From: an uncultured Clostridiaceae bacterium
GTDB taxonomy: Bacteria > Bacillota > Clostridia > TANB77 > CAG-508
Assembly (NCBI GenBank): GCA_947577025.1
Contig: CANPTO010000005.1
Location: forward strand, 31,048-95,047
DNA length: 64,000 nt
Direction of reading: 5' to 3'
Each line of letters begins with the position of its first letter. The first letter of the stretch is position 1. This document shows positions 2,895 to 23,813 of this stretch, piece after piece. The position numbers were made by a program, and so were the translations under genes. The notes beneath the pieces were generated by a model that was not told the DNA's origin, did no database searches, and was given only the letters and a program-made list of their open reading frames with translations.

Positions 2895-3113
2895 AATTTA
2901 AGTTTTATCTCCAAACATTCCTAATTTTTCATTATTAAATTATACTACTCCGCATACCATGTCAACCTCTATCGTTACCTTAATTTTATTATTTTCTACT
3001 CTTTTAACCTTATTTTTACCTTTTCTCTCAAAACTAACAAAATCCTCAAAAACAGTAAATTCCACTATTCTGTCTAATTTTTTAGATATAGCACCGAGCA
3101 ACACTCCACATGG
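2895..3113 (-). repeat. Recombinase 'tail' copy L: last ~57 codons plus ~45 bp of 3' flank of the intact recombinase. Directly repeated at 23590-23813.
   Basis: Base-by-base comparison of 2895-3113 with 23590-23813 shows only scattered mismatches. Homology ends at TAGCAC-N8-ACTCCACATG (3089-3112). Confidence 0.85.
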
Positions 3114-4829
3114 CTTACACATAGGCTGTAGATAGTTTTGACTTACCTCGTATGATGACTGTTGATTTTCTTGATTTTGAACTACCGAGTTTTTCTCGGT
3201 TGTTGAATCTCTACACTTGATTTCGTTTCCAGATTTTAGGATAAAAGTTATAACTCTTGGATTTAACTCTCCATTAATTTCTTTTTCTCCAATTATAACC
3301 TTTTCTATCATTAGTTCAAAAACATCTTTATCAAATTCTGGCATGATTTCATTATCTTTAAACAGAGTTTTAAACTTGTTTAATCCTTGATTTAAACTAA
3401 TTGAATCTTCTAATTCTAGTTGCAAATGCTCTTGTTCTTTTTCTATACTATTTACTTTGTTTTGTAATTTTGCCTTCTTTTCTTGCAAAGTTTCTAAAGT
3501 TATTGTTCCATTTAAGTTTAAATCAATTAGTTTGTCTATCTTTTCCTTTAATATTTGATTTTCTTCCTCTAGCCTTTTAATAGAACTTTCATTACTTTCT
3601 TCTTGTATAATTTCTTCCATTTCGTTTAAGAATGTTTGGATTAACTCTTTATTGTTATTACATAGTAGCTTATAGCTTTCTGTAAATGCTTCTTCTATAA
3701 TATTTTCTTTCATAGCTTTACAATGTGGACAATTTTCTTTTCCATGTTTTACAAATTCCATACATTGCCAAACTGTTATACTATTTTTAGTTCCAGAATG
3801 CCAGTTTCTTCTTGTTAATAAACTTCCACAAAAGCCACAATATAATCTACTACTAAAAGGATATTTCCTACTAAAGTTGCCTTTTCTTCTTCCAGAGCCT
3901 CGTACTCCTCCTCGCTTTTGTAATATTTCTTGTGCTTGATTGAACATTCTTTCAGAGATGATTGGCTCATGATGTTCTTGTATATAGTATTGATTTTCTT
4001 CTCCCATATTGACTACTCTTCTATGGGATATTGGATCTGTTGTATATGTTTTTCCTTGTAAGACATCTCCTTTGTATTTTTCGTTTTTTAAGATTCCTCT
4101 TATTGTTGATTCGTGCCATTTCTTTTTACCTGTTGGTGTTTTATATTTCATATTTGTAAGTTCTTTTGCAATTGTTGTGCAGCCTACTCCTTGACAGTAT
4201 CTTTCAAAGATATATCTTACTATTTCTGCTTCTTCATAATTGATTGATATTTCTTTTGTATCTTTGTCATAGACATATCCTAAACAACCATTATATCCAA
4301 TTAGTTCTCCTCTTTTTTGTTTCATCTGTAAGCCTAGTTTTACATGGGAAGATATATTTTCGCTTTCTTGCTGTGCCATTGCACTTAATACTGTTAGCAT
4401 TATTTCTCCTGATATTTCTAAAGTATTTATTCTTTCTTCTTCAAAGTAAATAGCAATTCCTTTTTCTTTTAATAGCCTTACATATTTTAAGGTATCTACT
4501 GTGTTTCTTCCAAATCTTGATATTGATTTTGTAATTATCATATCAAATTTGTTATTTGTAGCATCTTGCATCATTTTCATAAAGCCATCTCTTTTATAGT
4601 CTAGTGTTCCTGTTATTCCTTCATCTGCATAAATGCCAACATATTTCCAATCACTATTTGCTTTTATTTTTTCTTCATAATACTTTAGTTGGGAATTGTA
4701 ACTGTTTATTTGTTCTTCTTTTTCTGTACTTACTCTTGCATAGGCACATACTCTTAAATTTCCTTTTATTTCTTCTCCTGTTGTTCTATTAATTCGACCT
4801 TTTTTCTTCTCTATAACTTGTACTTTCAA
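2940..4829 (-). CDS. Large serine recombinase (resolvase catalytic domain + recombinase domain + zinc ribbon + coiled coil + C-terminal extension)
   Basis: 629-aa ORF. Catalytic region RVCAYARVSTEKEEQ...SISRFGRNTVD, Cys-rich zinc ribbon CGFCGSLLTRR...WQC...CPHC, then a long coiled coil. Confidence 0.9.
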   Translation of the reverse strand: MKVQVIEKKKGRINRTTGEEIKGNLRVCAYARVSTEKEEQINSYNSQLKYYEEKIKANSDWKYVGIYADEGITGTLDYKRDGFMKMMQDATNNKFDMIITKSISRFGRNTVDTLKYVRLLKEKGIAIYFEEERINTLEISGEIMLTVLSAMAQQESENISSHVKLGLQMKQKRGELIGYNGCLGYVYDKDTKEISINYEEAEIVRYIFERYCQGVGCTTIAKELTNMKYKTPTGKKKWHESTIRGILKNEKYKGDVLQGKTYTTDPISHRRVVNMGEENQYYIQEHHEPIISERMFNQAQEILQKRGGVRGSGRRKGNFSRKYPFSSRLYCGFCGSLLTRRNWHSGTKNSITVWQCMEFVKHGKENCPHCKAMKENIIEEAFTESYKLLCNNNKELIQTFLNEMEEIIQEESNESSIKRLEEENQILKEKIDKLIDLNLNGTITLETLQEKKAKLQNKVNSIEKEQEHLQLELEDSISLNQGLNKFKTLFKDNEIMPEFDKDVFELMIEKVIIGEKEINGELNPRVITFILKSGNEIKCRDSTTEKNSVVQNQENQQSSYEVSQNYLQPMCKPCGVLLGAISKKLDRIVEFTVFEDFVSFERKGKNKVKRVENNKIKVTIEVDMVCGVV

Positions 4830-4896
4830 AATTAACCTTCCTTTCTCAAGTTTAGAGAATCTTTATGTGCTTATTATACATCAAAAGTTAAATTTT

Positions 4897-5082
4897 TCAA
4901 ATACCTATGTGAGTTAAATTATATTCTTGTAAAATATTTTGTTTTAATTCTAAATATCTTTTTTCTTTAATTAATCCTGCATTAAATGTTTTGTTTAGTA
5001 TTGCTATTTTTATACTGCAATTAAAAACATTTTCGTTTAGCTTGATGTTTTTCGTATTATCAAAATTAATTTCGTACAACAT
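4897..5082 (-). CDS. Hypothetical 61-aa protein between the backbone module and the recombinase
   Basis: ORF preceded by AAGGAGG at appropriate spacing. No recognisable motif. Confidence 0.35.
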   Translation of the reverse strand: MLYEINFDNTKNIKLNENVFNCSIKIAILNKTFNAGLIKEKRYLELKQNILQEYNLTHIGI

Positions 5083-5112
5083 AAAAATCCTCCTTAACTT
5101 GAATTAAATTTC

Positions 5113-5154
5113 AAAAAAGGCAACAGAAAAAGCCAGTCGGCTAGCTTCGACTGA
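5113..5154 (-). terminator. Rho-independent-type terminator (minus strand) just upstream of the 61-aa ORF
   Basis: Stem CAGTCG (5134-5139) / CGACTG (5149-5154), followed on the minus strand by a T-rich run (plus-strand A-run 5113-5132). Confidence 0.45.
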
Positions 5155-5268
5155 CTTGATTGTTTTGCATTTTTTGATAATACGATTATATGATGGCATT
5201 TTTATAAAATCAATTCCGTTTTATTTCCCATTTTTCTAAAAATTTTATTTTAAAATAAAATCTTTTTC

Positions 5269-5516
5269 AAGTTCACTTGGTGTACTTTATATTTTGAATT
5301 AATATTTTCAAAAGTTCACTCGGTGTACTTGTCATAAAATTCAATTATTTAGTTCACTAAGTGTACTTGATCTGTAATTTTTAGTTCACCTAGTGTACTA
5401 ATTATCAATATTTTAATAAAATTTAAGTACACTTAGTGAACTTCTTTAATATTTTTGCTTTTTATTTTTAATTTTAAACGAAGAATAGCGGGTTTCAGCC
5501 AGTTCACTCGGTGAAT
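5269..5516. promoter_or_regulatory. Array of six dyad-symmetric 15-bp sites GTTCAC-N3-GTG(T/A)AC (operator/iteron-like)
   Basis: Copies at 5271-5285, 5314-5328, 5352-5366, 5384-5398, 5427-5441 (inverted) and 5502-5516. The same motif array recurs at 16629-16801. Confidence 0.7.
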
Positions 5517-5615
5517 TTCTGCATCATATTTGCTTAAATTTTACATTCTTTTATTAACTCTAGAAGGCTTGTCCTTCTATGTGTATAGGCGATATGTTAA
5601 TGTCGCTTTCCTGCC
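5489..5615. repeat. Conserved ~125-nt non-coding block, copy 1 (copy 2 at 16774-16903)
   Basis: Near-identical run GGGTT.CAGCCAGTTCACTCGGTGAATTTCTGCATCATATTTGCTTAAA...GAAGGCTTGTCCTTC.ATGTGTATA.GCGATATGTTAAT..CGCTTTCCTGCC in both islands. Contains short hairpins (GAAGG/CCTTC, GCGA/TCGC). Confidence 0.8.
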
Positions 5616-5616
5616 T

Positions 5617-7422
5617 TTAGTTTTCTTGTTTTTTCCATCTCTTTATAACATCATCTATTGTTATTTTATCATTATTATTTTTGTCTATTTCTTTCCATTC
5701 TTCTTTCCAAACATTATACACTTTAACATTTTCAGATTTTGGTTCTGGTGAAGGTTTATCCATGCTTATTATAGCAGGTATTGGAGTCGCATCCCCTACA
5801 ACTAGTGATTCTCCTGGTGCTAATATTGGTAATATATCTGCTATTGAATTAGTATTATTAGGTAATAAATTTTTTATATAGTTTTGATCTGTCATATTTG
5901 TTAATCTTAAAGATATAAAATTATTACATTGAGCAAATATTGTATCAGATACTTCACTTGGTCTTTGGCTAACAACCATCACACTTAGACCATACTTTCT
6001 TCCTTCTTTTGCAATTCTTTCTATAGATTTTTTTGAAGCCTCATAATCAGCCCCACCTTTTTTTGGTATATAATTATGAGCTTCTTCACATACAATTAAA
6101 AATGGTACATCATTAGTTTCATTATTTTCATGTTTTAATTTAGAATAATGAAATGCAAAATCAAATGCTAGTCTTGATATTAAACTTACTGTTATGGATA
6201 ATACTTCAAATGGCACTCCACTTAAATCTATAATACTAATATTGGCCTTATTCAAATATCCCAGAAATTGTTTTAAAATTTCACTAAAGTCTTCTGTTTT
6301 ATATTCTGTTTTTTCCTCCTTTTGCGGATTCATAATAAATTCTAATCTTTTATCATTTATTTTATTTTCTAGTCTAACAATGAATCTATCAAATTCACCA
6401 TTAAATGGTCCATTACTTGCTTTTGATGCTGCACTCGTAGAGTTTGGCACAAAATTAAATATATCATTAAAATATTCTTTATTATCTTCTATTAGTTTTG
6501 TTGTGCCATCTTTCAAAACAACTTTTGGTAATTGTTTTTCATTTGCTATTTTATTTATTACTTCGTTATTTAAATTATATATATAATTATATACTTCGTT
6601 AATATTAAAATATATAGGTGTATCATACGTTATTTTTTCAAGGCTTGGATTATACTTTTGTTTATTCAATAATATTGCTTTCCTAAATTGGGAAATTTGA
6701 TTGTGTGAATTATTTTCGTTGCTTTCAATAAACAAAGATTCTAATTCTTCGGAATTCATTAGCCAATATGGTAGCTTCAATTTTTCAACATCTAAATAAT
6801 TCAATGAGAATTTTTCATTTGCTTCTATTGAAAATGCAGATTTATATTCTGAATGTACATCAAATATAACAATATGTGCATTTCTTGTGTTTTCTTTATT
6901 CAAGTTTTTTCCATTTTCTATTCCTACCACTTGTTGCAAAATTTTGGCAACGGTACATGATTTTCCAGAACCTGTTGAACCAACTATACCAATATGTTTT
7001 CCAAAAAAATTATTACCATCTATACACAATTTAACATTATTATCTTGAACTAATTTTCCTAATTCAAAATTATATTTTTCGTTTTTTATAAAAATCGTTT
7101 GTAACACTCTATCATCTGCTATATAAACTTTTTCTGTTGGAGATGGTAATATAGACGTTCCTGGTTTAAATGTTTCTTGAGTTACAATTCCTATTGGTTC
7201 AGTTGCTAAAATATATTTTTCTTTTTCTCTTTCTTCATCATTAATTGCCTTTATATTTTTTATAGTTGCTATCATGAAATCATTATTTCCAACATTGATT
7301 TTTAGATATTTTCCTATTTTTATATTTTCTTTATTTGTTTCAAATTTTTCGAACTCCATTTTTACAGTTACAGTATTTGCCGAACTCTCTAAAACATCTC
7401 CTATTTCTACATTTTCATTCAT
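5617..7422 (-). CDS. HerA-like (DUF87) ATPase, partner of the DUF4297 nuclease
   Basis: 601-aa ORF. Walker A GIVGSTGSGKSCTVAKIL, Walker B-like FLIVCEEAHNYIP, and SVMVVSQRPSEV typical of the HerA/FtsK-like clade. Confidence 0.85.
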   Translation of the reverse strand: MNENVEIGDVLESSANTVTVKMEFEKFETNKENIKIGKYLKINVGNNDFMIATIKNIKAINDEEREKEKYILATEPIGIVTQETFKPGTSILPSPTEKVYIADDRVLQTIFIKNEKYNFELGKLVQDNNVKLCIDGNNFFGKHIGIVGSTGSGKSCTVAKILQQVVGIENGKNLNKENTRNAHIVIFDVHSEYKSAFSIEANEKFSLNYLDVEKLKLPYWLMNSEELESLFIESNENNSHNQISQFRKAILLNKQKYNPSLEKITYDTPIYFNINEVYNYIYNLNNEVINKIANEKQLPKVVLKDGTTKLIEDNKEYFNDIFNFVPNSTSAASKASNGPFNGEFDRFIVRLENKINDKRLEFIMNPQKEEKTEYKTEDFSEILKQFLGYLNKANISIIDLSGVPFEVLSITVSLISRLAFDFAFHYSKLKHENNETNDVPFLIVCEEAHNYIPKKGGADYEASKKSIERIAKEGRKYGLSVMVVSQRPSEVSDTIFAQCNNFISLRLTNMTDQNYIKNLLPNNTNSIADILPILAPGESLVVGDATPIPAIISMDKPSPEPKSENVKVYNVWKEEWKEIDKNNNDKITIDDVIKRWKKQEN

Positions 7423-7428
7423 ATATTT

Positions 7429-8733
7429 TTAAACCTCTTTTCTTAAGTTTAATAAAAACTCTAATTCCTTTAAATTTTCTATTTCTATCATTTCTATATT
7501 TTTACCTAATTTTCCTATATCCTCTGTTTCTTCTTTTCCAATAATAAATAAATCATCTATTTGCATATTTTTTATAGCATATATAAAATTATCAGAATAA
7601 TCAATTAATCTTATATTAAATTCAAGCCAATTGTCTTTTATCTTTTTTTGAGGATTAGCCATAAATTTTTCTTTATAAAATTTTTCTCCTACATATCCAT
7701 TTTCTACTTTTACATTCATCTCATACAATTCTGATATTAACTGAGCTATATAATTTTTATCTACATTCATAATACAAAATGTAGTAGGTTTATGTAATTT
7801 AACTTTCCAACAGTATTTTTCTTTGTAATTTCTTATAAAATTGCTAATTTCTTTATCAAAATTTTCAATCCATTTAGGATTTAGGATAAAACATCTTTCT
7901 CTATAATTCTTATTTAAATTTTGATTTAATTGTTTCCTTTTAATTTGTAATATTTTTTTACGAGAGATTATTTCTTTTGTCCAACGGGTAAATGCTGTAT
8001 CTTTATGTTCTTTTAATAATTTTATTATATTTCTTTTATTTGTTTTTCTTTTATCTGCTATTTTATTTATACTTAAATCTGCAATAGTTTGTATTGCATT
8101 TGGAAAAAATAAATCATCAACATCTTCTTTTGAAAATCCTTGTTCTTGTAGTAATTTTTTATTAATTTCTTTTATTTTTTCATATTTTTCTCCTACTATT
8201 ATCTTAAATCTAGTTAGAAATTGTTGCAAATCAAATTTTAAATCCATATTATTTTCATAAAAATATTTCTTTATTTTTTGCTTGTCATCATCACTTTTCC
8301 TTTTTTTAGAAATTATATCTAATATCTCTTTAGAGTTGCATTTTTTTAAGTATGCTATATAATCTATCAAATATTCTTTATTTTTTGTTTCAATAATTTG
8401 TGTTAAATCATCCAAAGTTATTTTCATTTCACTATCAACTAAATTTGGAAAATACATGTATAATATATACTCTATATTTGCATTAGGATTTTCAGCAAAA
8501 GTCTTCATCATCTGTAAAATTGGTTTATATATTTTTGACAAACTAAATTTCTCTTGACCTTCATGATACTTACATTGTATAGCAACTGTATTATTTCCTC
8601 GTTCAATATCAATATCTTCTATTATTCCCTCTACAGTTATCTCATCATCTTCTGATGCCCTTAAAATTTCTTGTAATGTAATATTAAATTGATATAAAAA
8701 ACCTTGTATTGTTGAATCTGCTACTCTTGACAT
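7429..8733 (-). CDS. DUF4297 (Cap4-like nuclease domain) protein of a DUF4297-HerA defence pair
   Basis: 434-aa ORF. N-terminus GFLYQF...EDIDIERGNNTVAIQCKYHEG matches the GFxYQ ... D/E ... QxK endonuclease pattern of DUF4297. Lies 6 nt upstream of herA-like on the same strand. Confidence 0.8.
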   Translation of the reverse strand: MSRVADSTIQGFLYQFNITLQEILRASEDDEITVEGIIEDIDIERGNNTVAIQCKYHEGQEKFSLSKIYKPILQMMKTFAENPNANIEYILYMYFPNLVDSEMKITLDDLTQIIETKNKEYLIDYIAYLKKCNSKEILDIISKKRKSDDDKQKIKKYFYENNMDLKFDLQQFLTRFKIIVGEKYEKIKEINKKLLQEQGFSKEDVDDLFFPNAIQTIADLSINKIADKRKTNKRNIIKLLKEHKDTAFTRWTKEIISRKKILQIKRKQLNQNLNKNYRERCFILNPKWIENFDKEISNFIRNYKEKYCWKVKLHKPTTFCIMNVDKNYIAQLISELYEMNVKVENGYVGEKFYKEKFMANPQKKIKDNWLEFNIRLIDYSDNFIYAIKNMQIDDLFIIGKEETEDIGKLGKNIEMIEIENLKELEFLLNLRKEV

Positions 8734-8753
8734 AGTTACTCCTTCATATATTA

Positions 8754-9362
8754 TTATAATTTTTTATTTATTTCATCTATCCAACTTTCATCATCACCTT
8801 CAAAGTGTTCAACAAACTTCAATATATTGGTGCTAGAAGTTATATTGTCATCTGTTGATAACTTAGCTACATTTTCTTTCATTTTTTCATAATTGCTTCT
8901 TTTAATTTTGCTAAATAATTCTTTTCTTTGCTCATCTGTAGCTTTATAGTTATCAATGCCAACATACTCTTTTATATATTTACTATTTATAGCTTTACTT
9001 TGGCTTGTTAATTTTATTTCTGCAAAATGTGAAAGTATTATTTGCATTGTACATGGATTTCCAAATATTACAATGTCATCTGCTACCTCTTCTCCATGAA
9101 AATCATTTATCTTTTGTTTTATTTCTTTATATTTTTCTGATGGTCCTTTATCTGTATCACAGAATATTAAAACCAAAGAATATGAATCTGATTGATATTT
9201 TTCTTGGTATCTTGCTATTATTGTATTTATTGATTTTGCATTTACTGTAATAAAATCATATTTGTCGGAAAATACTGCTTTACTTTTTAAAGTTTCAATA
9301 TAATCCAATTCTTCATATCCTTCACATATAATACATATCTTTTTTCCTTTATATTTCCTCAT
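8754..9362 (-). CDS. RloB-like (TOPRIM-related) protein, AbiLii/PARIS-AriB-like partner
   Basis: 202-aa ORF. N-terminus KICIICEGYEELDYIETL and LVLIFCDTD resemble the RloB family. Overlaps the upstream ATPase gene by 14 nt. Confidence 0.65.
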   Translation of the reverse strand: MRKYKGKKICIICEGYEELDYIETLKSKAVFSDKYDFITVNAKSINTIIARYQEKYQSDSYSLVLIFCDTDKGPSEKYKEIKQKINDFHGEEVADDIVIFGNPCTMQIILSHFAEIKLTSQSKAINSKYIKEYVGIDNYKATDEQRKELFSKIKRSNYEKMKENVAKLSTDDNITSSTNILKFVEHFEGDDESWIDEINKKL

Positions 9363-10599
9363 TATCCACCTCCAATAAGGTAGATATTAAGTCTGGTTCA
9401 GGTATTGCTCCAAATTCACCTTTAATATATTTTTCTTGTATATTTGATGTATCTCTTACTCCATTTTCTGCATAACTAAATTCTTTTAGTGAATATAAAT
9501 CTGTTCCATTTTCATCTTTGTCTGTAAACCATATTTGCTCTTTTCTAAACATTCTTTTACAATCTAATAAACTTATATCATGAAGAGTAGCTATTAATTG
9601 TGCATTTTTATTTATTTCATTATTAAACATACTAATTATTGCTCTTGTAATTTTAAAATGCAAACTACTATCTAATTCATCAATTACTAATGTTTTGCCT
9701 TGTTCAATTGCTTCTATTACATAACTTGCAAGAGCTGCTAATTTTCTTGTTCCTAATGAATCAAATATAATGCTTGGTACTGCTTGCCCTTTATAAACTG
9801 ATACTATTTTGATTTGATCCATAAAGTTTTGGTTTTTTAGGATTTTCTCATCTACAACTTTTCCATCTATCTCTACATTTAAGTCTTCAATATACATATA
9901 ATCTTCCAAATACAAATCGGCATTTTTAATAAACTCAACGACTTTTTTTGTTTCATCATCTTTATTTTTTAACATTTGTATTGTTTTTGAATTTGGTATT
10001 TTATTCATATCTACTATTTCAATACTATTTGCTATACCTGTTAATATGGTTTTTATTTTCTCTAGTATTGGGAATTTTTCAATTTGTACTGTATATATTA
10101 AAATATTGTTATTAGAAGCTATATTTAATACTTTTGCTAATTCTTCATCTTGTGGACATTCATATTTTTCATTAATTGTATCTTTTAAAAATATTAGTTC
10201 TTCTTTTTCATTATTATATTGGTCTTTAACTATCTCACACATTTTTTCATATATATACATCATTTTTTTATCATCAAATTTATATTCATATAAATACTCT
10301 TTGTTATCATATATAAATGAAATAGCTTCTTCGCAAATGTTACTGTCTGTAAATATATTTGAATCTAAGTGAATTTCCTTATTTAGTAAAGTTCCTTTAA
10401 TTGCTTTAATACAGTTTATTAAAGTAGTTTTTCCTGTATTGTTTGGACCATAAATAGCTGCGGATTTTAATATATTTAGGTTATCATTTATATTAGTTAC
10501 ATTTGATGAAAACTTTTTTGTTCTCATATCTGCTTTTAAACTCATTTCTATAGCATTATTAAAAGCAAAACAATTATTAAATTTTAAACTTGTTATCAT
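9349..10599 (-). CDS. AAA_21/ABC-type ATPase, AbiLi/PARIS-AriA-like
   Basis: 416-aa ORF. Walker A IYGPNNTGKTTL, Walker B LVIDELDSSLH, and C-terminal QLIATLHD...QIWFTDKD typical of AAA_15/21 ATPases. Confidence 0.8.
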   Translation of the reverse strand: MITSLKFNNCFAFNNAIEMSLKADMRTKKFSSNVTNINDNLNILKSAAIYGPNNTGKTTLINCIKAIKGTLLNKEIHLDSNIFTDSNICEEAISFIYDNKEYLYEYKFDDKKMMYIYEKMCEIVKDQYNNEKEELIFLKDTINEKYECPQDEELAKVLNIASNNNILIYTVQIEKFPILEKIKTILTGIANSIEIVDMNKIPNSKTIQMLKNKDDETKKVVEFIKNADLYLEDYMYIEDLNVEIDGKVVDEKILKNQNFMDQIKIVSVYKGQAVPSIIFDSLGTRKLAALASYVIEAIEQGKTLVIDELDSSLHFKITRAIISMFNNEINKNAQLIATLHDISLLDCKRMFRKEQIWFTDKDENGTDLYSLKEFSYAENGVRDTSNIQEKYIKGEFGAIPEPDLISTLLEVDNEEI

Positions 10600-10725
10600 A
10601 ATAAAACCTCCAATTTATTATTAGTATATCATATTTTTATTTTTTATGCAATAATAACGCATAAAAAATATTGTTTATTATATAATATGCCCACTTTCAA
10701 TTTAAATACACTAATATCTAAAAAA

Positions 10726-10956
10726 TTGCCGTTTTAATTCGTAAATTTTATTCGATTTACGAACTATAACGGCAAAATATTAAAAATACTTACTCTTAAA
10801 TTTTATATCAAGTATTTATATTTACTTGTCGGAAACCTTCGTAAATACCAAATAATTTACGAAAGTTTCCGACATATTTAATTCCCATATTACGAAAATT
10901 AGCAATTTTTCGTAATAAAGATTTTTATATTACGAATTTTTCGCTTTTTTCGTAAT
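10726..10956. repeat. Cluster of four hairpins, each built on a TTCGTAA / TTACGAA core
   Basis: Four inverted repeats (IR). IR1 10726-10775: TTGCCGTTTTAATTCGTAAAT / ATTTACGAACTATAACGGCAA. IR2 10828-10873: GTCGGAAACCTTCGTAAAT / ATTTACGAAAGTTTCCGAC. IR3 10889-10916. IR4 10929-10956. Confidence 0.8.
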
Positions 10957-10963
10957 ATAACTT

Positions 10964-11512: not shown

Positions 11513-11514
11513 TT

Positions 11515-11982: not shown

Positions 11983-11994
11983 ATTTTTCTACCT

Positions 11995-13977: not shown

Positions 13978-14002
13978 TTAATTACATTCTCCTTATTTTT
14001 TA

Positions 14003-15004: not shown

Positions 15005-15063
15005 AATTATATTGATCCTCCCTAACGTTACTTTATCTTTTTGATTTATAGAAAAACAATTTG

Positions 15064-15462: not shown

Positions 15463-15581
15463 AGTTTCATCATCTCCTATTAATTTTTTCTTTATTTATA
15501 TCACAACTTTACATTTTTTCATAGTGTTTTACCAATATTTGCAAAACATATTTATTCTTACATTTGCTTAATTGCCACAAA

Positions 15582-15655
15582 ATCTCCAATAGAAATAATG
15601 TCAAGAGCGAGTGATAACGAGTTTATTTACTCTTGATATTATTTTTATTGGAGAT
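15582..15655. other. Long imperfect hairpin (26-bp arms) in a 390-nt intergenic region
   Basis: ATCTCCAATAGAAATAATGTCAAGAG ... CTCTTGATATTATTTTTATTGGAGAT. Followed by two TTTTGACCTA(C/T)A direct repeats (about 15706 and 15746). Confidence 0.6.
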
Positions 15656-15979
15656 TAAAATTTTTTCGCAAATGTATGGGGCAAATTTTTCAATATTTTT
15701 GACCTACATAATTTTATAAGTCAAAAAATCCTAAAATTTTGACCTATAAAAAAATAGACATCAGCACATATCTACTGACACCTAATTTTATAAAGATTCT
15801 CTATAACTTATTTTAATAAATTTCCTCTAACACTTGAAATACTTAACATTTCTTTGTATCTACTTACCAGCACAACCTATACCTGTTATGCTTACAGTAG
15901 ATACAATCGTAAATTTTCCAGTATTTCAAACACTTTGCTCAATTTTCTGAGAATAAATTTATGTGTTTCCACTTACCAC

Positions 15980-16135
15980 TTAAGCAATTACTTTAACTTT
16001 CACACCCAAATTTTGATGTTTTTCTTTTCCAAATCTGCCTTTTTCTTCAAAAGCTATAATCTCTGAAACAATATCAAAATCAAGTATTAGCTGTCTTGTT
16101 TTAATTGTAGCACTGCCACGCATTCCACGTGTGTT
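15980..16135 (-). pseudogene. Diverged recombinase 'tail' remnant (proposed right end of island 1)
   Basis: Minus-strand frame NTRGMRGSATIKTRQLILDFDIVSEIIAFEEKGRFGKEKHQNLGVKVKVIA* aligns with the intact tail CGVLLGAISKKLDRIVEFTVFEDFVSFERKGKNKVK. It is out of frame with the 16101-16634 fragment. Confidence 0.6.
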
Positions 16136-16634
16136 GTTTCTCTTTGGTTGCAGTATTATTTGAATGTTGTTTATCGCTCATAGCAGTAAATCTATCTTTG
16201 CAATTTATTTCTGTTCCATTTTTACAAATAAATCTTATTGTATATGGATTTATTGTTCCATCTTCTAATGTTTCTCCTATTACTACTTTATTCATTAAAC
16301 ATTCAAATATATCTTTATCAAATTTCGGCATTATATCTATATTTTTAAATAAACTTTTAAACTTGTTTAATCTTAGTTTAATACTTTCTGTTCTGTTTGT
16401 TTCTTTTAGTAGGTTTTCTATTTTTTGTTCTATTTTAAGTAATTCTACATTTAAGTTATCAAATTTTTCTGTATATTGCTCTTTATTGATTTTTCCTTCT
16501 AAATTTAACTCTAATAGATTAGCAAGTTTCTTGTTTATTTTTTCTTTGTTATTTTCTAATTTACTTACCATTGTTTCTGTAGTATTTTCTTTTAAGATAT
16601 TTTCTATTTCTAATATAATTTTTAATAAGTACAC
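16101..16634 (-). pseudogene. 5'-deleted large serine recombinase (coiled-coil and C-terminal domain only)
   Basis: The 177-aa ORF aligns with residues ~400-570 of the 2940-4829 recombinase: LNKFKSLFKNIDIMPKFDKDIFECLMNKVVIGE vs LNKFKTLFKDNEIMPEFDKDVFELMIEKVIIGE. No catalytic domain upstream. Confidence 0.85.
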
Positions 16635-16801
16635 TAAGTGAACTAATACTTGAATAATCTAAAACTACAAGTTCACTTGGTGTACTAGAAAAATATAACA
16701 AAAGTTCACTAAGTGTACTTGAAAACTTTTTACTTTTTTCATATTCACTTAGTGAACTTTGGTATTAGAATAGCAGGGTTGAGCCAGTTCACTCGGTGAA
16801 T
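16629..16801. promoter_or_regulatory. Second array of GTTCAC-N3-GTG(T/A)AC dyad sites
   Basis: Copies at 16629-16643 (inverted), 16671-16685, 16704-16718, 16744-16757 (TTCAC-TTA-GTGAA) and 16787-16801. Confidence 0.7.
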
Positions 16802-16903
16802 TTCTGCATCATATTTGCTTAAAATTTCTGTTTCTTTATTAACTCTTGAAGGCTTGTCCTTCAATGTGTATATGCGATATGTTAATACCGCTTTCCTGCC
16901 CTC
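16774..16903. repeat. Conserved ~125-nt non-coding block, copy 2
   Basis: Aligns with 5489-5615 with few mismatches. Confidence 0.8.
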
Positions 16904-16997
16904 ATTTCTAATGAGGTATTTTGAGTTTTAATAGTGTTTATGTCTACTTGATTAAATATACCTATCCTTAACTCCTCTTAATTGAAAAACAATGTGC

Positions 16998-17046
16998 TTT
17001 TAAAAATAAGTCAAGGTTGTGCAATAGCACATGCATTTAACCTTGA
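16998..17046 (-). terminator. Terminator after the KAP NTPase gene
   Basis: Stem TCAAGGTT (17011-17018) / AACCTTGA (17039-17046), with a T-run on the minus strand. Confidence 0.5.
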
Positions 17047-17084
17047 GTTATTTTTATAATGCACATTATAATATTGGTAGAGGA

Positions 17085-19700
17085 TTAGACGATAAATTTC
17101 TTATCTTCATTAAGAAATATTGCATGTTTATCATCTGGAATAGTTCTGCTTTGTTCATATATATTCAATAATAATTTTTCATCCTCAGTAAGTTCTCTTT
17201 CAATACTTTTTAAAATATTATCAACTTCATCTATACTAGAAAATTCTTCTATATTTCCTTTTCTCACACTATATCCATAGCCACTACCTACTGATCTACC
17301 AAGCATATCATTTAAAAATCTAAAAATATTTTCTTTATTCAGAATGTTTTTTATATATTCTTTTCTCTCTTTTTTACTTTCTTTCGTTTCATGATAAATT
17401 CCCCATAAATTTTTCTCTATATAATACTTTTCATCTAATATATTTATATTATTATTAATTATATTTTCAACTAATTTTTTTCCTACTATGTTCAATCTAT
17501 CTAATTTTTGATCATATTCTTCTTTCAAATGATTTTTATTATTTTCTATCCAATACTTTAATTCCTTAATACAATATACCTTTGAATAATCATTTCCTAT
17601 TACCTCTAAAAATTCTTCAAATTCTTTTTGAGAGATTTCTATAATTATTTCAGACATAATTATATATATTCTTTGTAAAGCACTTAACCCTAAAAATAGC
17701 ATAGCATCATTATATTCTTTCAAATGTTTATACATAATTTTTAATAGTACAATCTTTTTATCTTTATTTATCTCACTTACATAATATTCTAGAGTTTCAA
17801 AAGTATACTTCTGTATCCAATTGGAATATAAGTTCATTAAATCTATGAATTTTTCTTCTACTACTTTCATATCATTGACACTATTAATTATTCTTATAAA
17901 TTCTTCTATATTTTTATTAATGTTTGTAAATTCATTATCACATTGTGAAAAATACAAATCGAAATATCTAGCATTAAATATTCTTTTACTTTTTACATTT
18001 GTCTTGTAGTCTCCATTATTGTTCTGTCCTATCATATAACTGCCATATTCTGGTTTTATAGATCTATCTTTTTTATAATTTTCTACATAAGGAAACATTA
18101 AAGATAGTATTTCTTCATACTCTTTGTGTTTTTTATTATTAATACTAAATAAATTATCAAAATATTCTTTTGCCTTATTATTAAATCCTCTTGTATCTAA
18201 AGTATATAATTCACTAAACATATGTGTATCTTCTGAAATAAAATATTGCTTATTTCGCCATATTTCTTCATATAATTCTATATCATTACCTTTTATTAAT
18301 TCCAATAGTAATGTATCTTGAAAATTCAAATAATTATTTAATTTATAATTAAAGCTGATTACAGAATTTAGATATATTTTTAGTTCTCTTAAATCGGTAA
18401 TATAACTCGCTAACAGACTTATGACTTTTTCGCATTCTTTTTCATAAGGATTCATTCCATATAAAGACATTAAATTTCTCATACATTTATTCACGATGTT
18501 ATACATAACAGATTCATGTACTTTTGGAATTTTTATTTCTAGTTGAATTATCTTCTTCAAATATTCATAATCAATATTTAAATCTTTTTCAAATATTTTT
18601 TTCATCCTTTCATCATCAAAAGATAATAAATAAATTGTATTATTAAAATTTAATATATTGTTTATTAGTTTAAATAGGAATATAATATTATTTTTATCTG
18701 CTCTTTCAATATTATCAATTATAAATAGTATTTTTTTGTTATTATTCTTTAGATATGCATTTATAATTTTCTTCAATTTATTGTTCTTATCGTAATCAGT
18801 ATAATATTTTCTTATAATATTATATGTGCTTTCATATTTTGTAACATTAAATATTGTATTCATATAAGTTCTTAAAAAATCACTTATATCTTTTATACTA
18901 AAATTAATTCCTATTTTATTCATAATGGAATCAAACATTCCTCTAAACATTGCTTTTTCATCTTCATAAGACCAAGGATCAAAGTCATCAATAACAATTA
19001 TATTTTTTTCCTTTTTTATAATCTTTTTTAAATTATTAATTATTGTGGTTTTACCACTTCCCCATTTTCCTTGTAATGCTAATACAAATTTTTCTCCATT
19101 GTAACAATGCGACACTAATTCATATAATTTATTAATGATATGTCCCCTTTCTAATAAATCATAATCTACCTCTTTTTCTTTTATAAGTATCAAATTATTG
19201 TTTTCTTTGTTTATATTTCCATCATATAAATCTTTTAAATCATATACATTAGTATCTATTTCTTTGTTTTTTATTTTATTAATTTTTCTCACTCGATTTA
19301 ATTCTAACATAGATAGTATAATTATTATTGTAGAACATATGATTATTTTTAATGACATTCCGCTACTATATATATAAATTACAATGTCATAACAAAATAG
19401 TGAAATTATTGAACTGACTAAAAAAGAATCTACATAATTTACTGTTTGCAATTTGTATAAATTCCAAGGTTTAAATTCAAATATTTTTATTAATATCAAT
19501 ACTACTGCAATACCATATAAGAATATAAATTCTTTTCTATCTATTAATTTTGTAAAAATATTTAAATAATCTATTATAAATATCATAAGTAACATTAATA
19601 ATGATTTTTTTAATATATCTGAACATGTATATAACTCATTAAATAATTGTTGATATTTAGTATTCATTGTATCTTTCAATTTCTGTTTTAATTTTCCCAT
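17085..19700 (-). CDS. Membrane-anchored KAP-family P-loop NTPase (Tmn-like)
   Basis: 871-aa ORF. About four N-terminal hydrophobic helices (residues ~30-135), KAP-type Walker A LQGKWGSGKTTIINNL, Walker B-like ILFIIDNIERAD. Confidence 0.8.
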   Translation of the reverse strand: MGKLKQKLKDTMNTKYQQLFNELYTCSDILKKSLLMLLMIFIIDYLNIFTKLIDRKEFIFLYGIAVVLILIKIFEFKPWNLYKLQTVNYVDSFLVSSIISLFCYDIVIYIYSSGMSLKIIICSTIIIILSMLELNRVRKINKIKNKEIDTNVYDLKDLYDGNINKENNNLILIKEKEVDYDLLERGHIINKLYELVSHCYNGEKFVLALQGKWGSGKTTIINNLKKIIKKEKNIIVIDDFDPWSYEDEKAMFRGMFDSIMNKIGINFSIKDISDFLRTYMNTIFNVTKYESTYNIIRKYYTDYDKNNKLKKIINAYLKNNNKKILFIIDNIERADKNNIIFLFKLINNILNFNNTIYLLSFDDERMKKIFEKDLNIDYEYLKKIIQLEIKIPKVHESVMYNIVNKCMRNLMSLYGMNPYEKECEKVISLLASYITDLRELKIYLNSVISFNYKLNNYLNFQDTLLLELIKGNDIELYEEIWRNKQYFISEDTHMFSELYTLDTRGFNNKAKEYFDNLFSINNKKHKEYEEILSLMFPYVENYKKDRSIKPEYGSYMIGQNNNGDYKTNVKSKRIFNARYFDLYFSQCDNEFTNINKNIEEFIRIINSVNDMKVVEEKFIDLMNLYSNWIQKYTFETLEYYVSEINKDKKIVLLKIMYKHLKEYNDAMLFLGLSALQRIYIIMSEIIIEISQKEFEEFLEVIGNDYSKVYCIKELKYWIENNKNHLKEEYDQKLDRLNIVGKKLVENIINNNINILDEKYYIEKNLWGIYHETKESKKERKEYIKNILNKENIFRFLNDMLGRSVGSGYGYSVRKGNIEEFSSIDEVDNILKSIERELTEDEKLLLNIYEQSRTIPDDKHAIFLNEDKKFIV

Positions 19701-19731
19701 TACAATTACTCCGTTTATTTTATTATATCTT

Positions 19732-21217
19732 CTATTTTACATTTAGTTTATATTTTCTATTCCTATTTGCACCTTCTGCTATAATCATTTCTTCTTTTGC
19801 CATTTTTGATAAAATTGCTCTGGTTCTTTGTGATGATAAATTTAATAATTCACTTGCTATATCTGTTGTTATAAATTCATTTTGTTTTAAATAGTTTAAA
19901 ATTTTATCGCTTGTTTTATCGCTTGTTTTATCGCTTGTTTTTATTTTATTTAAAATTTCATTTTCAAATCCATCATGCATAAATATTGTTGTAATAAAAT
20001 AATCTCTTGTTTCATTTGTTTCAAATAATGGTTCTTTTGAACCATTATTTTTTAATGCTCTTTTTATTTTTGGAACACCTGTATTTCTACCTTCTGTCAA
20101 TTTTAACTCTTTTAGAAATTCTCCAATTCTACGATTTCTATATTTTCTTGCTATCATATTTTTATCCTCAATTGATTTTTCGCTTATTGAACGATCTGGT
20201 CCTGGATAGCTTACAATATGAATTCTATTTTCCATTATTCTTACTTCTACTGGCTCTCTTACATCATATCCGCCTATGATAAACTGCATTTACTAATGCT
20301 TCTTCTATTGCCTGATATGGATAATTAAAAAATCTTACCGCTTCTGCTTGTCCATCTATCTTTAAAATCTTTTCTACAATAACAGTGTTTTTAATATATG
20401 TTAAAGCACTCTTTATCATACTATCTATTGGTCCTTTAAATATTTGCTCTGTCATATCATCGCCTTCTGGACCATTTCTTAAATCTACCACTTCTATTTG
20501 TGAATATGGGAAAAATTTTTGTGGTTCATCATTAAAGAACATTAAACCAACATTTAGTGGTTTCATATATTCTGGTGTTCCATCTACTATTCTCATACTT
20601 TTGCATAAATCCATAAAATCCATTGTTTCAGATTCTTTTAGTAAGTCACTTTTGATTTCATATAGATAATTTTGAATTAGTGGCAATTTTAAATCTCTAA
20701 TTTCTGCTTCATGATTCATTCTATCATCAAAAGGTATTGTTCTTGCCATATCATATAGTTCTGTTTGTTCTGTTTCTGTTGCTTTTACTGTACTTGACAT
20801 TTTCCTTATATAATATGAATAACCTTTTGAAAAGTCTTTATCTAATGTTGTTGGACATTTATATGGTCTTGTCTGTCCTCCAAAACACCATACTACTAAT
20901 ATATTTTTTCCTTTATATTGTGCAACATCTACTATTGGTGTATATGATGGTTGAATTAGCTTACATTTTGCTAATAATTCCTTTTGAATTTTATCTATTT
21001 CAGATAATTCAAGTCCTGTTATTGGCATTTTAGGTCTACCATTTTCTTCTTCAATACCAATTAAGATATATCCTCCACCCCAGTTATCTATATCGTTTGC
21101 AAATGCACAGATTGTATGTAATATTGGCTCTGGATTCCAACTTTTCTTTAATTCTAATCTTGCATTTTCTACAATGTTCTCATTTAGTATATTTTCTATA
21201 CTTGTAGGTAATTTCAT
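19732..21217 (-). pseudogene. AlbA_2 (Schlafen-like) / HATPase_c_4 / wHTH ATP-binding protein, split by a frameshift near 20272
   Basis: ORF 20264-21217 ends ...EEALVNAVYHRRI*. ORF 19732-20289 continues in another frame with ...YDVREPVEVRIMENRIHIVSYPGP. Together they form the usual single protein. Confidence 0.75.
19903..19940. repeat. 12-nt tandem repeat x3 (encodes KTSD-KTSD-KTSD)
   Basis: TTTATCGCTTGT repeated three times inside the AlbA_2 gene C-terminal part. Confidence 0.85.
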
Positions 21218-21241
21218 TTTTTCACCTCTTTATTTTTAACT

Positions 21242-22129
21242 TTATTCAAATTGGTTTGCTAACTGGTCTATTGTTATTCCCTCTCCTGTATAACTCCAAT
21301 CTATTTTTATATTATCAAATTCTTCATTTCTAAAATTGTTTAACCTTTCATAATCTACTTTTTCCATTTCAAATTCTAATGATTCTAAATTTTCATTTAT
21401 TCTTCTAATATTAGTACATTTTATTATTGGTTTTATTCCTTTTTCTTTTATAATCCAATTAAGAATAACTTGATTTTGAGTCTTATTGTATTTTTCTGAT
21501 AATTCTAATAATAATGGATAGTTTCTCTTTGCTGTTCTATTTCTTCTTAATGCTTGATATGCAATAAAAGTAATATCATTTTCTTTGCAATAATCTAAAA
21601 TCCCTATATTCTCATTAATTTTACATTCTAAATTGTATACTCCCTCAAAAAAGTCTATTTTTACTTTTTCATTTACTTCTTTCAATTGCTCTAGATTACA
21701 GTTACTTATTCCTAAACACCTAACTTTTCCTGTATTAACTAACCTTTTCATTTCATTATATGTGTCTATTAATGGTAATTTTGTAGCTTTTGGAGTATGC
21801 AATTGTAAATTATCTACATATTTTATATTTAGTATTTCCAAATATTCATTCAACTGTTTTTCTATATCTTCGAATTTTTCTATTGTTGGCTCTATATTAA
21901 CATTTATAAAAACTTTATCTCTAGCCATTGAATTAACATAATTCTTTAAACTTCTTACAACTGCACCACCATTATATAGCATATATAATGATAAGTAGTT
22001 TTGTCCTTTTTCATAAGAATATCTTAATCCTTTTATATCATTTTCTATATTTTCATAATCAATTTTCCATGTTCCTATTCCAATAGGAAATATATCATTT
22101 TTATTTAGCATGGTTTCCTCCTTATTCAA
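21242..22129 (-). CDS. Aldo/keto reductase
   Basis: 295-aa ORF. Overall AKR pattern (GIGTW..., LQLHTP, GISNC, AYQAL). Confidence 0.8.
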   Translation of the reverse strand: MNKEETMLNKNDIFPIGIGTWKIDYENIENDIKGLRYSYEKGQNYLSLYMLYNGGAVVRSLKNYVNSMARDKVFINVNIEPTIEKFEDIEKQLNEYLEILNIKYVDNLQLHTPKATKLPLIDTYNEMKRLVNTGKVRCLGISNCNLEQLKEVNEKVKIDFFEGVYNLECKINENIGILDYCKENDITFIAYQALRRNRTAKRNYPLLLELSEKYNKTQNQVILNWIIKEKGIKPIIKCTNIRRINENLESLEFEMEKVDYERLNNFRNEEFDNIKIDWSYTGEGITIDQLANQFE

Positions 22130-22134
22130 TGTTT

Positions 22135-23511
22135 TTAATAATCTTTATTATACTTTATCAAAGTTTCTTTTAGCCAATTATAAACTCTTATAGTTGATGA
22201 GATACTAACTCGTTCATTTACACTATGGCAATTATCAATTGTTGGAGCAATCGTACAAATATCTAAATTATCTATATTACTTGATATTATTCCACCTTCC
22301 ATACAAGCATGAATTTTTTTAACAGTTGTTTCTCTATTATATAATTCTTTATATGTATTTGCTAGTAATTCTCTTATATATGACTTTTCTTTATATGGAA
22401 AGAAAGGTTTTTTTACATCTAAATTAAACATCAAATTGTACTTATTACACAATCCTTTTATTCTATCTAGTTGCTTTTCTTCTTTATACTCATCAGAACT
22501 TCTTACACTCATTTTAATAATAATCTTATTATCAAGTATATTTATTTTTCCAATATTAGAAGATAATAAAGGAAAATTATCTTCTTTAAATCTTTCTATT
22601 AATCCATCATCTAACTCATTTATAAAATTAATTATTTCATTATAATTGCTTATTTTTTTTAAATTTTGATTACATTGTACTACACTCAACTTTAAATTAT
22701 TATCATCTCTTGATAAATTATAAGATAAGCCTTTTAGTGTTTCATTTATCTTATCTAAATCAAAATTACTACTAAAAACTATAACACCATTATTAGGTAT
22801 TACATTATCTTTTTCACCAATATCGACATGATATAATCCTGTACATTTTAGTTTAGAAATGATATTAAACCCTAATTTAACTGCATTACATCTATCTTTA
22901 TGTATATCATCTCCAGAATGTCCTCCCATCAATCCTGATATGTTCAATTTGTACTTAATATCATTACTTTCTTCATTCAATATTTCTTTACTTATAGTAA
23001 TCGAACACATCCCTGCACTAGAAGATTCTATATCGGCTTCCTTTATACCATCTAAACTAATTAAAGTTTTCCCATTAAGTAAGCTATAATCAAAATTACT
23101 AGCACCTAACATTGTTGTTTCTTCTTGAGTTGTTATCATTACCTCAATATTAGGCATATTTTCATTTTCTTGTAAAATAGCAAGAATAATTGCAATTCCA
23201 ATACCATCATCTGCACCCAAAGATGTATTTTTAGATTTATAATAATCTCCATCTTTATAAAAAGGTATTCCTCTATTTTCAAAATCATATTCATCATTTG
23301 ATACACATACCATGTCTGAATGTGCTTGCAATATTATAGTCTTATTTGAGTTATTATTTTTCTTTAAAAATACAGTATTATATTTTCCTAAACTATATTC
23401 TATATTATTCTTTTTAGCATAGTTGACAAGATATTCAGCAATTTTCTCTTCTTTTCCTGATTCTCTTGGAATTTTCATTATATCTTCAAAATATTCTAAT
23501 GTATTCTTCAT
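22135..23511 (-). CDS. pepD: Aminoacyl-histidine dipeptidase (M20C, PepD-like)
   Basis: 458-aa ORF. N-terminus FEDIMKIPRESGKEEKIAEYL, HSDMV, GADDGIGIA, TTQEETTMLGA. Confidence 0.8.
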   Translation of the reverse strand: MKNTLEYFEDIMKIPRESGKEEKIAEYLVNYAKKNNIEYSLGKYNTVFLKKNNNSNKTIILQAHSDMVCVSNDEYDFENRGIPFYKDGDYYKSKNTSLGADDGIGIAIILAILQENENMPNIEVMITTQEETTMLGASNFDYSLLNGKTLISLDGIKEADIESSSAGMCSITISKEILNEESNDIKYKLNISGLMGGHSGDDIHKDRCNAVKLGFNIISKLKCTGLYHVDIGEKDNVIPNNGVIVFSSNFDLDKINETLKGLSYNLSRDDNNLKLSVVQCNQNLKKISNYNEIINFINELDDGLIERFKEDNFPLLSSNIGKINILDNKIIIKMSVRSSDEYKEEKQLDRIKGLCNKYNLMFNLDVKKPFFPYKEKSYIRELLANTYKELYNRETTVKKIHACMEGGIISSNIDNLDICTIAPTIDNCHSVNERVSISSTIRVYNWLKETLIKYNKDY

Positions 23512-23589
23512 TTTTCCTCCACTATATTCTTGTTTTACCTATATTATCATAAAAAAGCAAAAAAAGAAAGCCTTTTACCAAAGACTTCC

Positions 23590-23813
23590 AATTTAAGTTT
23601 TATCTCCAAACATTCATTTATTTTTCATTATTAAATTATACTGCTCCGCACACCATCTCAACTTCTATCGTTACCTTAATTTTATTATTTTCAACTCTTT
23701 TAACCTTATTTTTGCCTTTTCTCTCAAAACTAATAAAATCCTCAAAAGCAGTAAATTCAACTATCGTATCAAATCTTTTAGATATAGCACCGAGCAACAT
23801 TCCACATGTGTGG
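23590..23813 (-). repeat. Recombinase 'tail' copy R (detached; no recombinase body upstream)
   Basis: Direct repeat of 2895-3113. Homology ends at TAGCAC-N8-ATTCCACATG (23785-23808). Confidence 0.85.

Follow-up and report, generated by a model that had tools for sequence, protein, structure and literature searches.

A large serine recombinase gene in a 64,000-nucleotide stretch of DNA from an uncultured Clostridiaceae bacterium (contig CANPTO010000005.1; the whole stretch is called the window here) raises the question of how an enzyme can come to share its C-terminus with sequence that carries no recombinase body. The original prediction, made from the letters of the window, proposed that islands are stacked there head-to-tail at an attachment (att) site inside the recombinase open reading frame (ORF), so that integration exchanges the end of the enzyme. 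Comparison with related loci points to an answer: the region is very probably a tandem array of small integrative islands, moved by large serine recombinases of the kind that targets rumA (rlmD).

Results

Three copies of a recombinase tail share one motif

The ORF at 2940-4829 (-) encodes a 629-residue large serine recombinase, Rec1, with Pfam Resolvase, Recombinase and Zn_ribbon_recom domains. Its last 57 codons and about 51 nt of 3' flank form a direct repeat (2889-3112 and 23584-23808) that aligns over 189 nt at 92% identity and 41 nt at 85%, with a one-base indel. The repeat noted in the original prediction is real; its limits, given as 3113 and 23813, move to 3112 and 23808, where homology between the two copies ends. 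The left copy, tail L (2889-3112, -), holds codons 573-629, now fused to Rec1 (stop codon at 2940-2942), and then the 51 nt of conserved 3' flank. The right copy, tail R (23584-23808, -), is of the same L type and has no recombinase body, as originally described: a tblastn search with Rec1 recovered residues 574-629 only.

A third, diverged tail, tail M (15980-16131, -), comprises 49 codons and a stop, and translation of 15983-16132 gives TRGMRGSATIKTRQLILDFDIVSEIIAFEEKGRFGKEKHQNLGVKVKVIA. It adjoins an ORF at 16101-16634 (-) whose frame differs from that of the tail and which matches Rec1 residues 403-544 at 42% identity, in line with the earlier description of a 5'-deleted recombinase at this position. 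We call this gene Rec2. What is left of this second serine recombinase (16132-16634, -), which belongs to a clade at about 59% identity, corresponds to its 3' third; about 2.2 kb, including its 5' part, is gone relative to a related locus (L012), and its ORF extends 10 codons beyond the core described below, to 16101.

The motif TAGCAC-N8-AYTCCACRTG, previously noticed at the three breakpoints, has exactly three matches in the 64 kb (3089, 16108 and 23785), where 0.03 would be expected; none of 100 shuffled sequences reached three. The tail repeats, the third tail and the motif cannot be due to chance. Within the motif lies an 8-bp att core, which at the junction of Rec1 body and tail L (3105-3112, -) reads CATGTGGA (TCCACATG on the + strand); the cores of tails M and R are at 16124-16131 and 23801-23808.

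Related loci break at an 8-bp core

We scanned 185,579 species genomes for the tail and obtained 79 loci. An alignment of all tail types (A2) was too diverse for this purpose, so the search used L-type tails only and the set is biased towards them. All 79 loci come from metagenome-assembled genomes (MAGs) of uncultured Clostridium, Clostridiaceae or Clostridia, except one labelled Bacilli. Together with the window they provide 111 junctions, all of which carry the same core, CAYGTNGA, read on the recombinase strand. On the 5' side of the core we found at least seven mutually unrelated classes of arm: rumA, Rec1, Rec2, two further recombinase clades (identity to Rec1 about 52% and 48%), and two non-recombinase classes, F and G.

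The same breakpoint is seen in proteins. In about 40 proteins from the databases, the first ~572 residues match Rec1 at 87-90% identity, and all of them diverge after the sequence EPC or EPR. They then stop immediately (EPC*), run into a short unrelated ending (EPCGVCYGIKT*, EPCRMCVLT*) or continue into one of three homologous tail types. Breakpoint polymorphism, whose absence would argue against a tail swap, is thus found exactly at the core in proteins and junctions alike. Both the proposed crossover within the Rec1 ORF and the proposed exchange of the Rec1 C-terminus are supported, the latter by homologues that change their ending at one residue.

To place the crossover, we compared core variants with the arms on either side. 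Identity between arms starts at the C of CAYGTNGA, and core position 6 travels with the right arm: right arms of the S1 type always have GTC, whether they follow rumA, Rec1 or Rec2. Agreement at position 6 is 85% for junctions with a common right arm, against 42-63% for those with a common left arm. Positions 3 and 9 gave no linkage signal at the clustering level used, which leaves position 6 as the only informative one. By this pattern the exchange would fall within CAYGT, at one of its invariant pairs, CA or GT. GA is also invariant in the core, and the criterion of the Tn4451/Tn5397 type is a GA crossover; the linkage of position 6 would put the exchange upstream of GA.

The 3' end of rumA is the primary target

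In 25 loci, the arm entering the core is a full ORF for a 23S rRNA (uracil-5)-methyltransferase, with TRAM and tRNA_U5-meth_tr domains and the NCBI name RlmD, which crosses into the core as ...PVDMFPFTS|HVEC.... The core bases encode His-Val-Glu in rumA, 11 codons before the end of the gene. The original prediction was right to set the crossover inside the Rec1 ORF, and overlooked this primary attB (the chromosomal attachment site). The 25 rumA ORFs are only 50-66% identical to that of locus L080, while the adjoining tails are 77-93% identical to the tails of the window; the elements thus move between hosts.

In the RumA frame, every tail opens with ~33 nt that encode a mimic of the native RumA C-terminus (HVECxxVLxLK). 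L tails encode HVECCSVLYLK and M tails HVECVAVLQLK, compared with native ends such as HVECVTVLRLK and HVECVMVLRLK.

Strains with an empty site or a single island had been proposed as a check, and both turned up among the relatives. In four loci (L098-L101), rumA is uninterrupted and contains a single core; two of these (L098 and L100) have no recombinase, in L100 over 7.4 kb of downstream sequence. Locus L080 is a single insertion, with the order rumA / M tail, 7.4 kb of cargo, a 61-residue ORF and a Rec1-type body / CATGTTGAGTGTGTGATGGTGTTAAGGTTGAAATAG, and its right end is the native 11-codon end of rumA (HVECVMVLRLK*). Two further loci, one with a rumA/S1 junction (L050) and one with a Rec1 body/S1 junction (L009), have identical right arms, which fits the insertion of one extra unit at the rumA/S1 junction. 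Across the family, integration takes place about 11 codons before rumA ends; the window copy has only a 23-nt rumA-like relic.

Core-to-core stretches behave as units

Integration inserts a linearised circle between two arms, and each stretch from core to core therefore corresponds to one element. By this reading the window holds island 1 (3113-16131), island 2 (16132-23808) and a third unit that runs from 3112 leftward out of the window. Tail M would be the left (P') end of island 1, tail R that of island 2, and tail L that of the third unit, which continues past the window start. The Rec1 body (3113-4829, -; residues 1-572), delimited by its Pfam domains and by the ~40 homologues diverging after about residue 572, forms the right (P) end of island 1, and the Rec2 remnant that of island 2; each recombinase is single and lies at the P end of its own unit. 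In related loci, tails and recombinases are paired: 7 of 8 units starting with an M tail end in a Rec1 body, and 12 of 14 starting with an L tail end in a Rec2 body.

The original prediction of serial site-specific stacking, with the left tail opening a further unit, is corroborated by the company that these units keep elsewhere. The third unit begins with tail L, a Bro-N/PDC-S13 gene, GNAT genes and a helicase, and its continuation is visible in locus L092. This tail-L and Bro-N unit comes after rumA, a Rec1 body or another arm in four loci (L047, L057, L066 and L010) and after other left arms again in L023, L071 and L061. The unit of tail R and a peptidase follows a Rec1 body in L015 and the 48%-identity recombinase in L035.

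Two points add to or correct the original prediction. Since M-tail units end in Rec1 and the single insertion reads rumA/M...Rec1, Rec1's own tail is the M-type copy at 16131, and the fused L tail is its neighbour's. The original prediction also supposed that circularising island 2 would rebuild a Rec2 body with a long tail; enzymes of the Rec2 type instead use the third frame and stop 10 codons later. The out-of-frame junction of Rec2 in the window is a family trait and not decay. A scan of metagenomes for the Rec1/M-tail joint found two integrated copies inside arrays and no circles. Separately, an inverted repeat (15581-15656) with 27-nt arms, 93% complementary, and a 22-nt loop lies in the 520 non-coding nt that separate tail M from the glyoxalase gene.

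These data suggest a model for the cycle of such an island. On the recombinase strand, a unit would consist of the tail or P' arm, cargo, an operator array, a small ORF, and the recombinase body or P arm. Exchange would occur in the 8-bp core, which in Rec1-type elements is the linker between the body and a C-terminal domain of about 50 residues. The excised circle of island 1 is predicted to encode the Rec1 body joined in frame to the M tail (572 + 49 = 621 residues, ...MCKP-RGMRGSATIKTRQL...), with the DNA joint ...CTACAGCCTATGTGTAAGC / CACGTGGAATGCGTGGCAGTGCTACAATTAAAAC; the predicted joint of the island 2 circle is ...CAACCAAAGAGAAACAACA / CATGTGGAATGTTGCTCGGTGCTATATC. Integration would split the recombinase gene and replace the last 11 residues of RumA by a mimic that the element encodes (HVECxxVLxLK). 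The integrated Rec1 would become fused to whatever DNA lies downstream, either a few native rumA-end codons in a single insertion or the next element's tail in an array, as here. Because the P' arm mimics the native rumA end, we infer that insertion regenerates an attB-like site next to rumA, through which further elements could enter; the order of arrival and the regeneration of a usable attB are inferred from this arrangement.

The model treats each unit as an autonomous element, perhaps decayed. A platform resembling an integron, made up mostly of passive cassettes (tail/att and cargo without a working recombinase) that a single resident recombinase, or a few of them, would shuffle in trans, is rather unlikely. 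Many units have no recombinase (for example L011, L038 and L005, and 1.4-kb units in L018, L081 and L082), cargo modules recur in varying order, P or B arms persist as relics of about 20 nt that have lost their genes, and conspecific strains differ in the first unit only. The pairing of tail type with recombinase clade in 19 of 22 units, however, is what would be expected of autonomous elements that later decay, and accretion of decayed elements (cis-mobilisable elements, CIMEs) is the published explanation for such arrays (PMC5704250). The two explanations are not exclusive.

The tail is a conserved coding segment whose first ~33 nt are read in three frames

To determine whether the tail is more than an att site, we examined its coding signature. 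An ORF of 56-57 codons is intact in 77 of 81 unique L tails. The ratio of non-synonymous to synonymous polymorphism (pN/pS) of L tails is 0.21 in the Rec1 frame, versus 0.78 and 1.12 in the other two, and variation peaks at third codon positions; M tails show the same coding signature. The tail ORF is thus under purifying selection. Sister recombinases of the L007 and L025 types hold a homologous segment within their own ORFs, upstream of the core (hhalign probabilities 78% and 93%), and the comparison of the tail with a third recombinase clade was not significant. Coding selection and these hard-wired homologues together indicate that the tail is an ancestral C-terminal domain. By this comparison the domain would be hard-wired in some clades, split off by the att site in Rec1, and outside the translated frame in Rec2. 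An AlphaFold prediction of full-length Rec1 shows a disordered linker (residues 542-582) followed by beta-hairpins in the tail, with a per-residue confidence (pLDDT) of only 54-61. Searching 1.84 billion proteins with a tail profile returned almost only small ORFs and fragments of the same family and linked no known domain to it.

All Rec2-type ORFs cross the core in the third frame and stop 10 codons on, for example as HMWNVARCYI*. The ~33 nt after the core (3080-3112, 16099-16131 and 23776-23808 in the window) are consequently used in three frames: as the RumA mimic (HVECCSVLYLK...), as the start of the Rec1 tail (CGVLLGAISK...) and as the Rec2 end (HMWNVARCYI*). This three-frame use probably explains why the att-proximal ~33 nt are nearly invariant. 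A programmed frameshift joining Rec2 to the tail was considered and dropped, as inspection by eye found no slippery site at the junction.

In one Rec1 subclade (L081-L083, ~11685-11857), the core reads CATGTTGA, a change that is synonymous for RumA (Val) and creates a TGA stop for Rec1. The TGA is directly followed by an ATG and a 54-residue tail ORF, an arrangement that looks like translational coupling.

Such loci lend some weight to the idea that the tail is an independent gene of about 54 residues, starting from an ATG or GTG at the core, which happens to be the integration target or encodes a trans factor (for instance a directionality factor), with its fusion to Rec1 incidental. We consider this unlikely. 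It would account for the codon at core positions 9-11, which is always ATG or GTG, for the 54-residue ORF called as its own gene after EPC-TGA in L081-L083, for the many small proteins in the profile search that begin exactly at that Met, and for the conservation of the ORF in Rec2-type elements, where it is unread. The RTG is, however, forced by the Glu-Cys codons of RumA (GAR TGY) and so is not independent evidence of a start codon, and no left-arm class shows an obvious ribosome-binding site when read by eye. Most Rec1/L junctions are in frame and free of stops, L081-L083 being the exceptions, and the sister recombinases have the homologous segment inside their own ORFs.

If the tail is instead the C-terminal domain of Rec1, as we favor, it might be a detachable domain by which the recombinase senses its state of integration: a circle would produce the full-length enzyme, a single insertion a tail-less one, and a stacked insertion an enzyme with its neighbour's tail. 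We offer this only tentatively and think it a doubtful prospect; the ORF may also yield a free 54-residue peptide, translationally coupled to rumA or Rec2. Tailed and tail-less enzymes may differ in function. If true, the tail relay would be a natural switch of serine-integrase directionality that works independently of a recombination directionality factor (RDF), and neighbouring islands would depend on one another.

The insertion site in the window varies between strains

The right end of the array is anchored at a 23-nt rumA-like relic (23809-23831, -) that resembles a B arm and lies beside a gene of 152 codons (23834-24292). Thirteen of 21 bases match the rumA arm when read by eye, and homology to rumA-flanked loci continues for 23 nt beyond the core. 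In eight contigs of the same species, flank and core are identical (100%) and the content differs from the core onward: the first unit carries peptidase, aldo-keto reductase, AlbA_2 and KAP genes in some, and in others contains a GNAT gene and ends in a Rec2-type gene. In these sequences we see direct population-level evidence of unit exchange at the site.

No further tail-type junctions were found in the 64-kb window; two bare 9-nt core matches near 34,550 have no tail context. To the right of the array, a MazG-like gene (27509-28204, -) has relatives at about 70% DNA identity within the arrays of L029, L036, L038 and L057, and part of the apparent chromosomal flank may be old, fixed cargo. 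Further away, the window encodes an unrelated large serine recombinase of 539 residues (43966-45585, -), 26% identical to Rec1, with small ORFs at 45813-46238 and 47314-47685; it possibly marks another integrated element.

Rec1 and Rec2 share an upstream organization

Directly upstream of Rec1 lies an ORF of 61 codons (4897-5082, -) for a candidate accessory or regulatory protein. A homologue with 87-98% amino acid identity precedes every Rec1-type gene, and one with about 40-46% identity precedes several Rec2-type genes (for example in L008, L009, L041 and L046). Its product is a candidate directionality factor or regulator. Pfam gave no match for the tail, the 61-codon ORF or a 75-residue ORF.

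Further upstream, five copies (one inverted) of a 15-nt site, GTACAC-N3-GTGAAC, occupy 5271-5441 (-). The upstream region of Rec2 (16629-17087, -) contains three such sites, spanning 16629-16718, and a conserved block; one end of the 5' deletion of Rec2 coincides with this array of sites. Across related loci we counted 126 sites, and arrays of three to six precede recombinase genes, clustering within about 1.2 kb upstream of them in the nine loci checked for position. These clusters, which in the window include both orientations of the site, look like operator or accessory-protein sites. The conserved block is non-coding and common to both upstream regions (5482-5622, -, with a paralogue at 16767-16907; repeat D2, 88% identity). 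It measures 140-320 nt and occurs in more than 45 related loci, sometimes with no recombinase adjacent; in the window (5482-5622 and 16767-17087) it contains short stem-loops such as GAAGGACAAGCCTTC. A search of window positions 1-26000 against Rfam gave no match, the block included; it could be a regulatory RNA, an origin of transfer (oriT) or a promoter region.

Islands carry defence genes and small enzymes

As the original prediction held, anti-phage cargo sits beside each recombinase: DUF4297-HerA and AbiL genes in island 1 and a PifA-like KAP NTPase gene in island 2, with PDC-S13 in the third unit. Hachiman-type genes (HamA and a DEAD/ResIII helicase) occupy the equivalent position in other loci. 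Nearer the tails, the cargo genes encode small enzymes (NUDIX, HAD, NT5C, GNAT, His_Phos and glyoxalase). In full, the cargo of island 1 (5617-15462, -) comprises DUF4297-HerA, AbiLi/AbiLii, a Ser_hydrolase fragment, NUDIX, HAD, NT5C-DUF6933, GNAT, His_Phos and glyoxalase genes, and that of island 2 (17085-23511, -) the PifA-like KAP NTPase, a frameshifted AlbA_2/HATPase_c_4 gene, an aldo-keto reductase and an M20 peptidase.

Some cargo is damaged or mosaic. The AlbA_2 and HATPase_c_4/HTH gene (19732-21217, -) is split into two overlapping ORFs by a frameshift near 20264-20289, and a database protein (P0061) is a deletion fusion in which a Rec1 N-terminus is joined to the C-terminal half of this gene. 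The Ser_hydrolase ORF (10964-11281, -) is a C-terminal fragment only, covering profile positions 74-169. Module homology to other loci breaks at about 10800-10993, beside tandem palindromes at 10887-10965, and this may be an internal mosaic boundary.

Among ORFs of at least 100 residues in 1917-23511, Pfam and PADLOC detected no family for conjugation or relaxase/oriT mobilisation. Pfam found no phage structural families in the units, and IMG/VR contained no relatives of the tail; we rejected a prophage or phage satellite on these two grounds. An integron was rejected as well, since the recombinases belong to the serine family and are not IntI, and their att sites take the form of a coding tail with an 8-bp core, in place of attC hairpins.

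Discussion

How well does an array of rumA-targeting islands account for the window? Several points weigh against it. There is no rumA in the 64-kb window and the array does not lie beside one; the site may be a relic attB, or one that is secondary or rearranged. Contigs of short-read MAGs, which often break at tails, make up most of the related loci, and some junction combinations could be chimeric; the recurrence of the junction classes in many independent assemblies counts against this. Rec2-type elements conserve a tail ORF that they never read. Srinivasan et al (2014; PMC4120198) inferred the crossover as GA, at the 11th codon from the rumA end, whereas our linkage points a few bases upstream; we take their GA as core positions 7-8, to the right of the exchange as placed here. 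Rec1 is likened to the published rumA integrases by design and target, not by phylogeny. Finally, the case is built from comparative sequence, which establishes the breakpoints, how units are built, rumA as the target, a single insertion, empty sites, strain polymorphism and coding selection on the tail; circles and activity are predictions.

It is very improbable that paralogous recombinase genes left the tails behind through ordinary duplication, deletion and homologous recombination and that site-specific exchange at the motif played no part. The array is decayed (Rec2 5'-deleted, AlbA_2 frameshifted, modules mosaic) and its 224-nt repeats at 92% identity could recombine homologously, but 111 junctions with unrelated left arms, those of 25 rumA genes from different species among them, break to the base at a single 8-bp core, the single insertion splits the two rumA halves exactly at the core, and the proteins diverge at one residue.

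The original prediction knew of no described family with a tail swap. For rumA-targeting serine integrases this architecture is published. Streptococcal integrative and conjugative elements (ICEs) with a single serine integrase integrate in rumA, with the 3' parts of rumA and integrase exchanged reciprocally and with a change of frame, so that the C-terminus of the excised integrase differs (Ambroset et al, 2016; PMC4701971). The same paper cites Mx8 as an analogue and CTn5 of C. difficile 630 delta-erm as another rumA user. The elements vanG and ICE-r lie in tandem at codon 11 counted from rumA's 3' end, with a recombinase gene that has no stop codon and a start-less ORF at the left end that begins like the RumA terminus (Srinivasan et al, 2014; PMC4120198). 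Our islands share with these elements (streptococcal ICEs and integrative and mobilisable elements (IMEs), vanG, ICE-r and CTn5) the target 11 codons from the rumA stop, an att site within the integrase gene itself, 3' ends that are swapped reciprocally with a frame change, a left end that mimics the RumA C-terminus, and tandem insertion (as in vanG + ICE-r). They differ in format: the islands here are 5-13 kb and have no conjugation or mobilisation genes, whereas the published elements are ICEs or IMEs of 45-80 kb. Their cargo is defence genes and small enzymes, not resistance genes, their hosts are uncultured gut Clostridium lineages, and the window copy is anchored at a 23-nt rumA relic.

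Integrases of the archaeal SSV1 type also have their attachment site within the integrase gene. In the Int protein of prophage Mx8, attP lies inside int, and integration replaces 112 residues by 13 and makes the enzyme less active (PMC4701971). Both share this placement of the att site with our islands, but they are unrelated tyrosine recombinases and are not known to stack via a regenerated target.

Accretion at one site has several parallels. The staphylococcal cassette chromosome elements (SCC/SCCmec) use large serine recombinases, target the 3' end of rlmH (orfX) and accrete in tandem with other elements and remnants. As here, the 3' end of an rRNA methyltransferase gene is targeted and is preserved by the element; unlike here, recombinases are CcrAB or CcrC pairs, the att site lies outside the recombinase gene, and no swap of the C-terminus is known. 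The clostridial elements Tn4451 and Tn5397 have large serine recombinases (TnpX and TndX), a 2-bp crossover and targets resembling the element ends. Compared by description, they likewise place a clostridial large serine recombinase at the element end, but their target specificity is low, and to our knowledge no att site inside an ORF has been reported for them. In S. thermophilus, CIMEs and ICEs accrete when a newcomer integrates at a resident's att site (Pavlovic, 2004; Bellanger, 2011; cited in PMC5704250, a review of accretion involving decayed elements). Residents there are often decayed and arrays include recombinase-less units, as here; the integrases are tyrosine recombinases, and tRNA or fda 3' ends are targeted. 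In Dehalobacter, the 3' end of rumA has been called an established hotspot with nested recombinase islands (PMC11578063). That island resembles ours as a multi-element hotspot with several recombinases; it measures 100-400 kb and consists of conjugative elements and transposons, and tail anatomy was not part of that study.

The data assembled here form a large natural set that brings together more than 100 junctions with three tail types and at least four recombinase clades; across these clades the C-terminal domain is hard-wired, swappable or absent. The set makes testable the question of Ambroset et al (2016) on the activity of integrated versus excised integrase forms, and it may be of use in engineering serine integrases with switchable directionality. 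Set beside the known systems, what is new is the small non-conjugative island format, the defence cargo and the gut Clostridium host clade. To these the sequence comparison adds a swapped segment that is a conserved domain with hard-wired homologues in sister recombinases, an att site at which three reading frames overlap, tail types that pair with recombinase clades, and the anchoring at a 23-nt rumA relic. The rumA-type design of serine integrases thus reaches beyond large streptococcal ICEs to mini-islands that assemble defence arrays in gut Clostridia.

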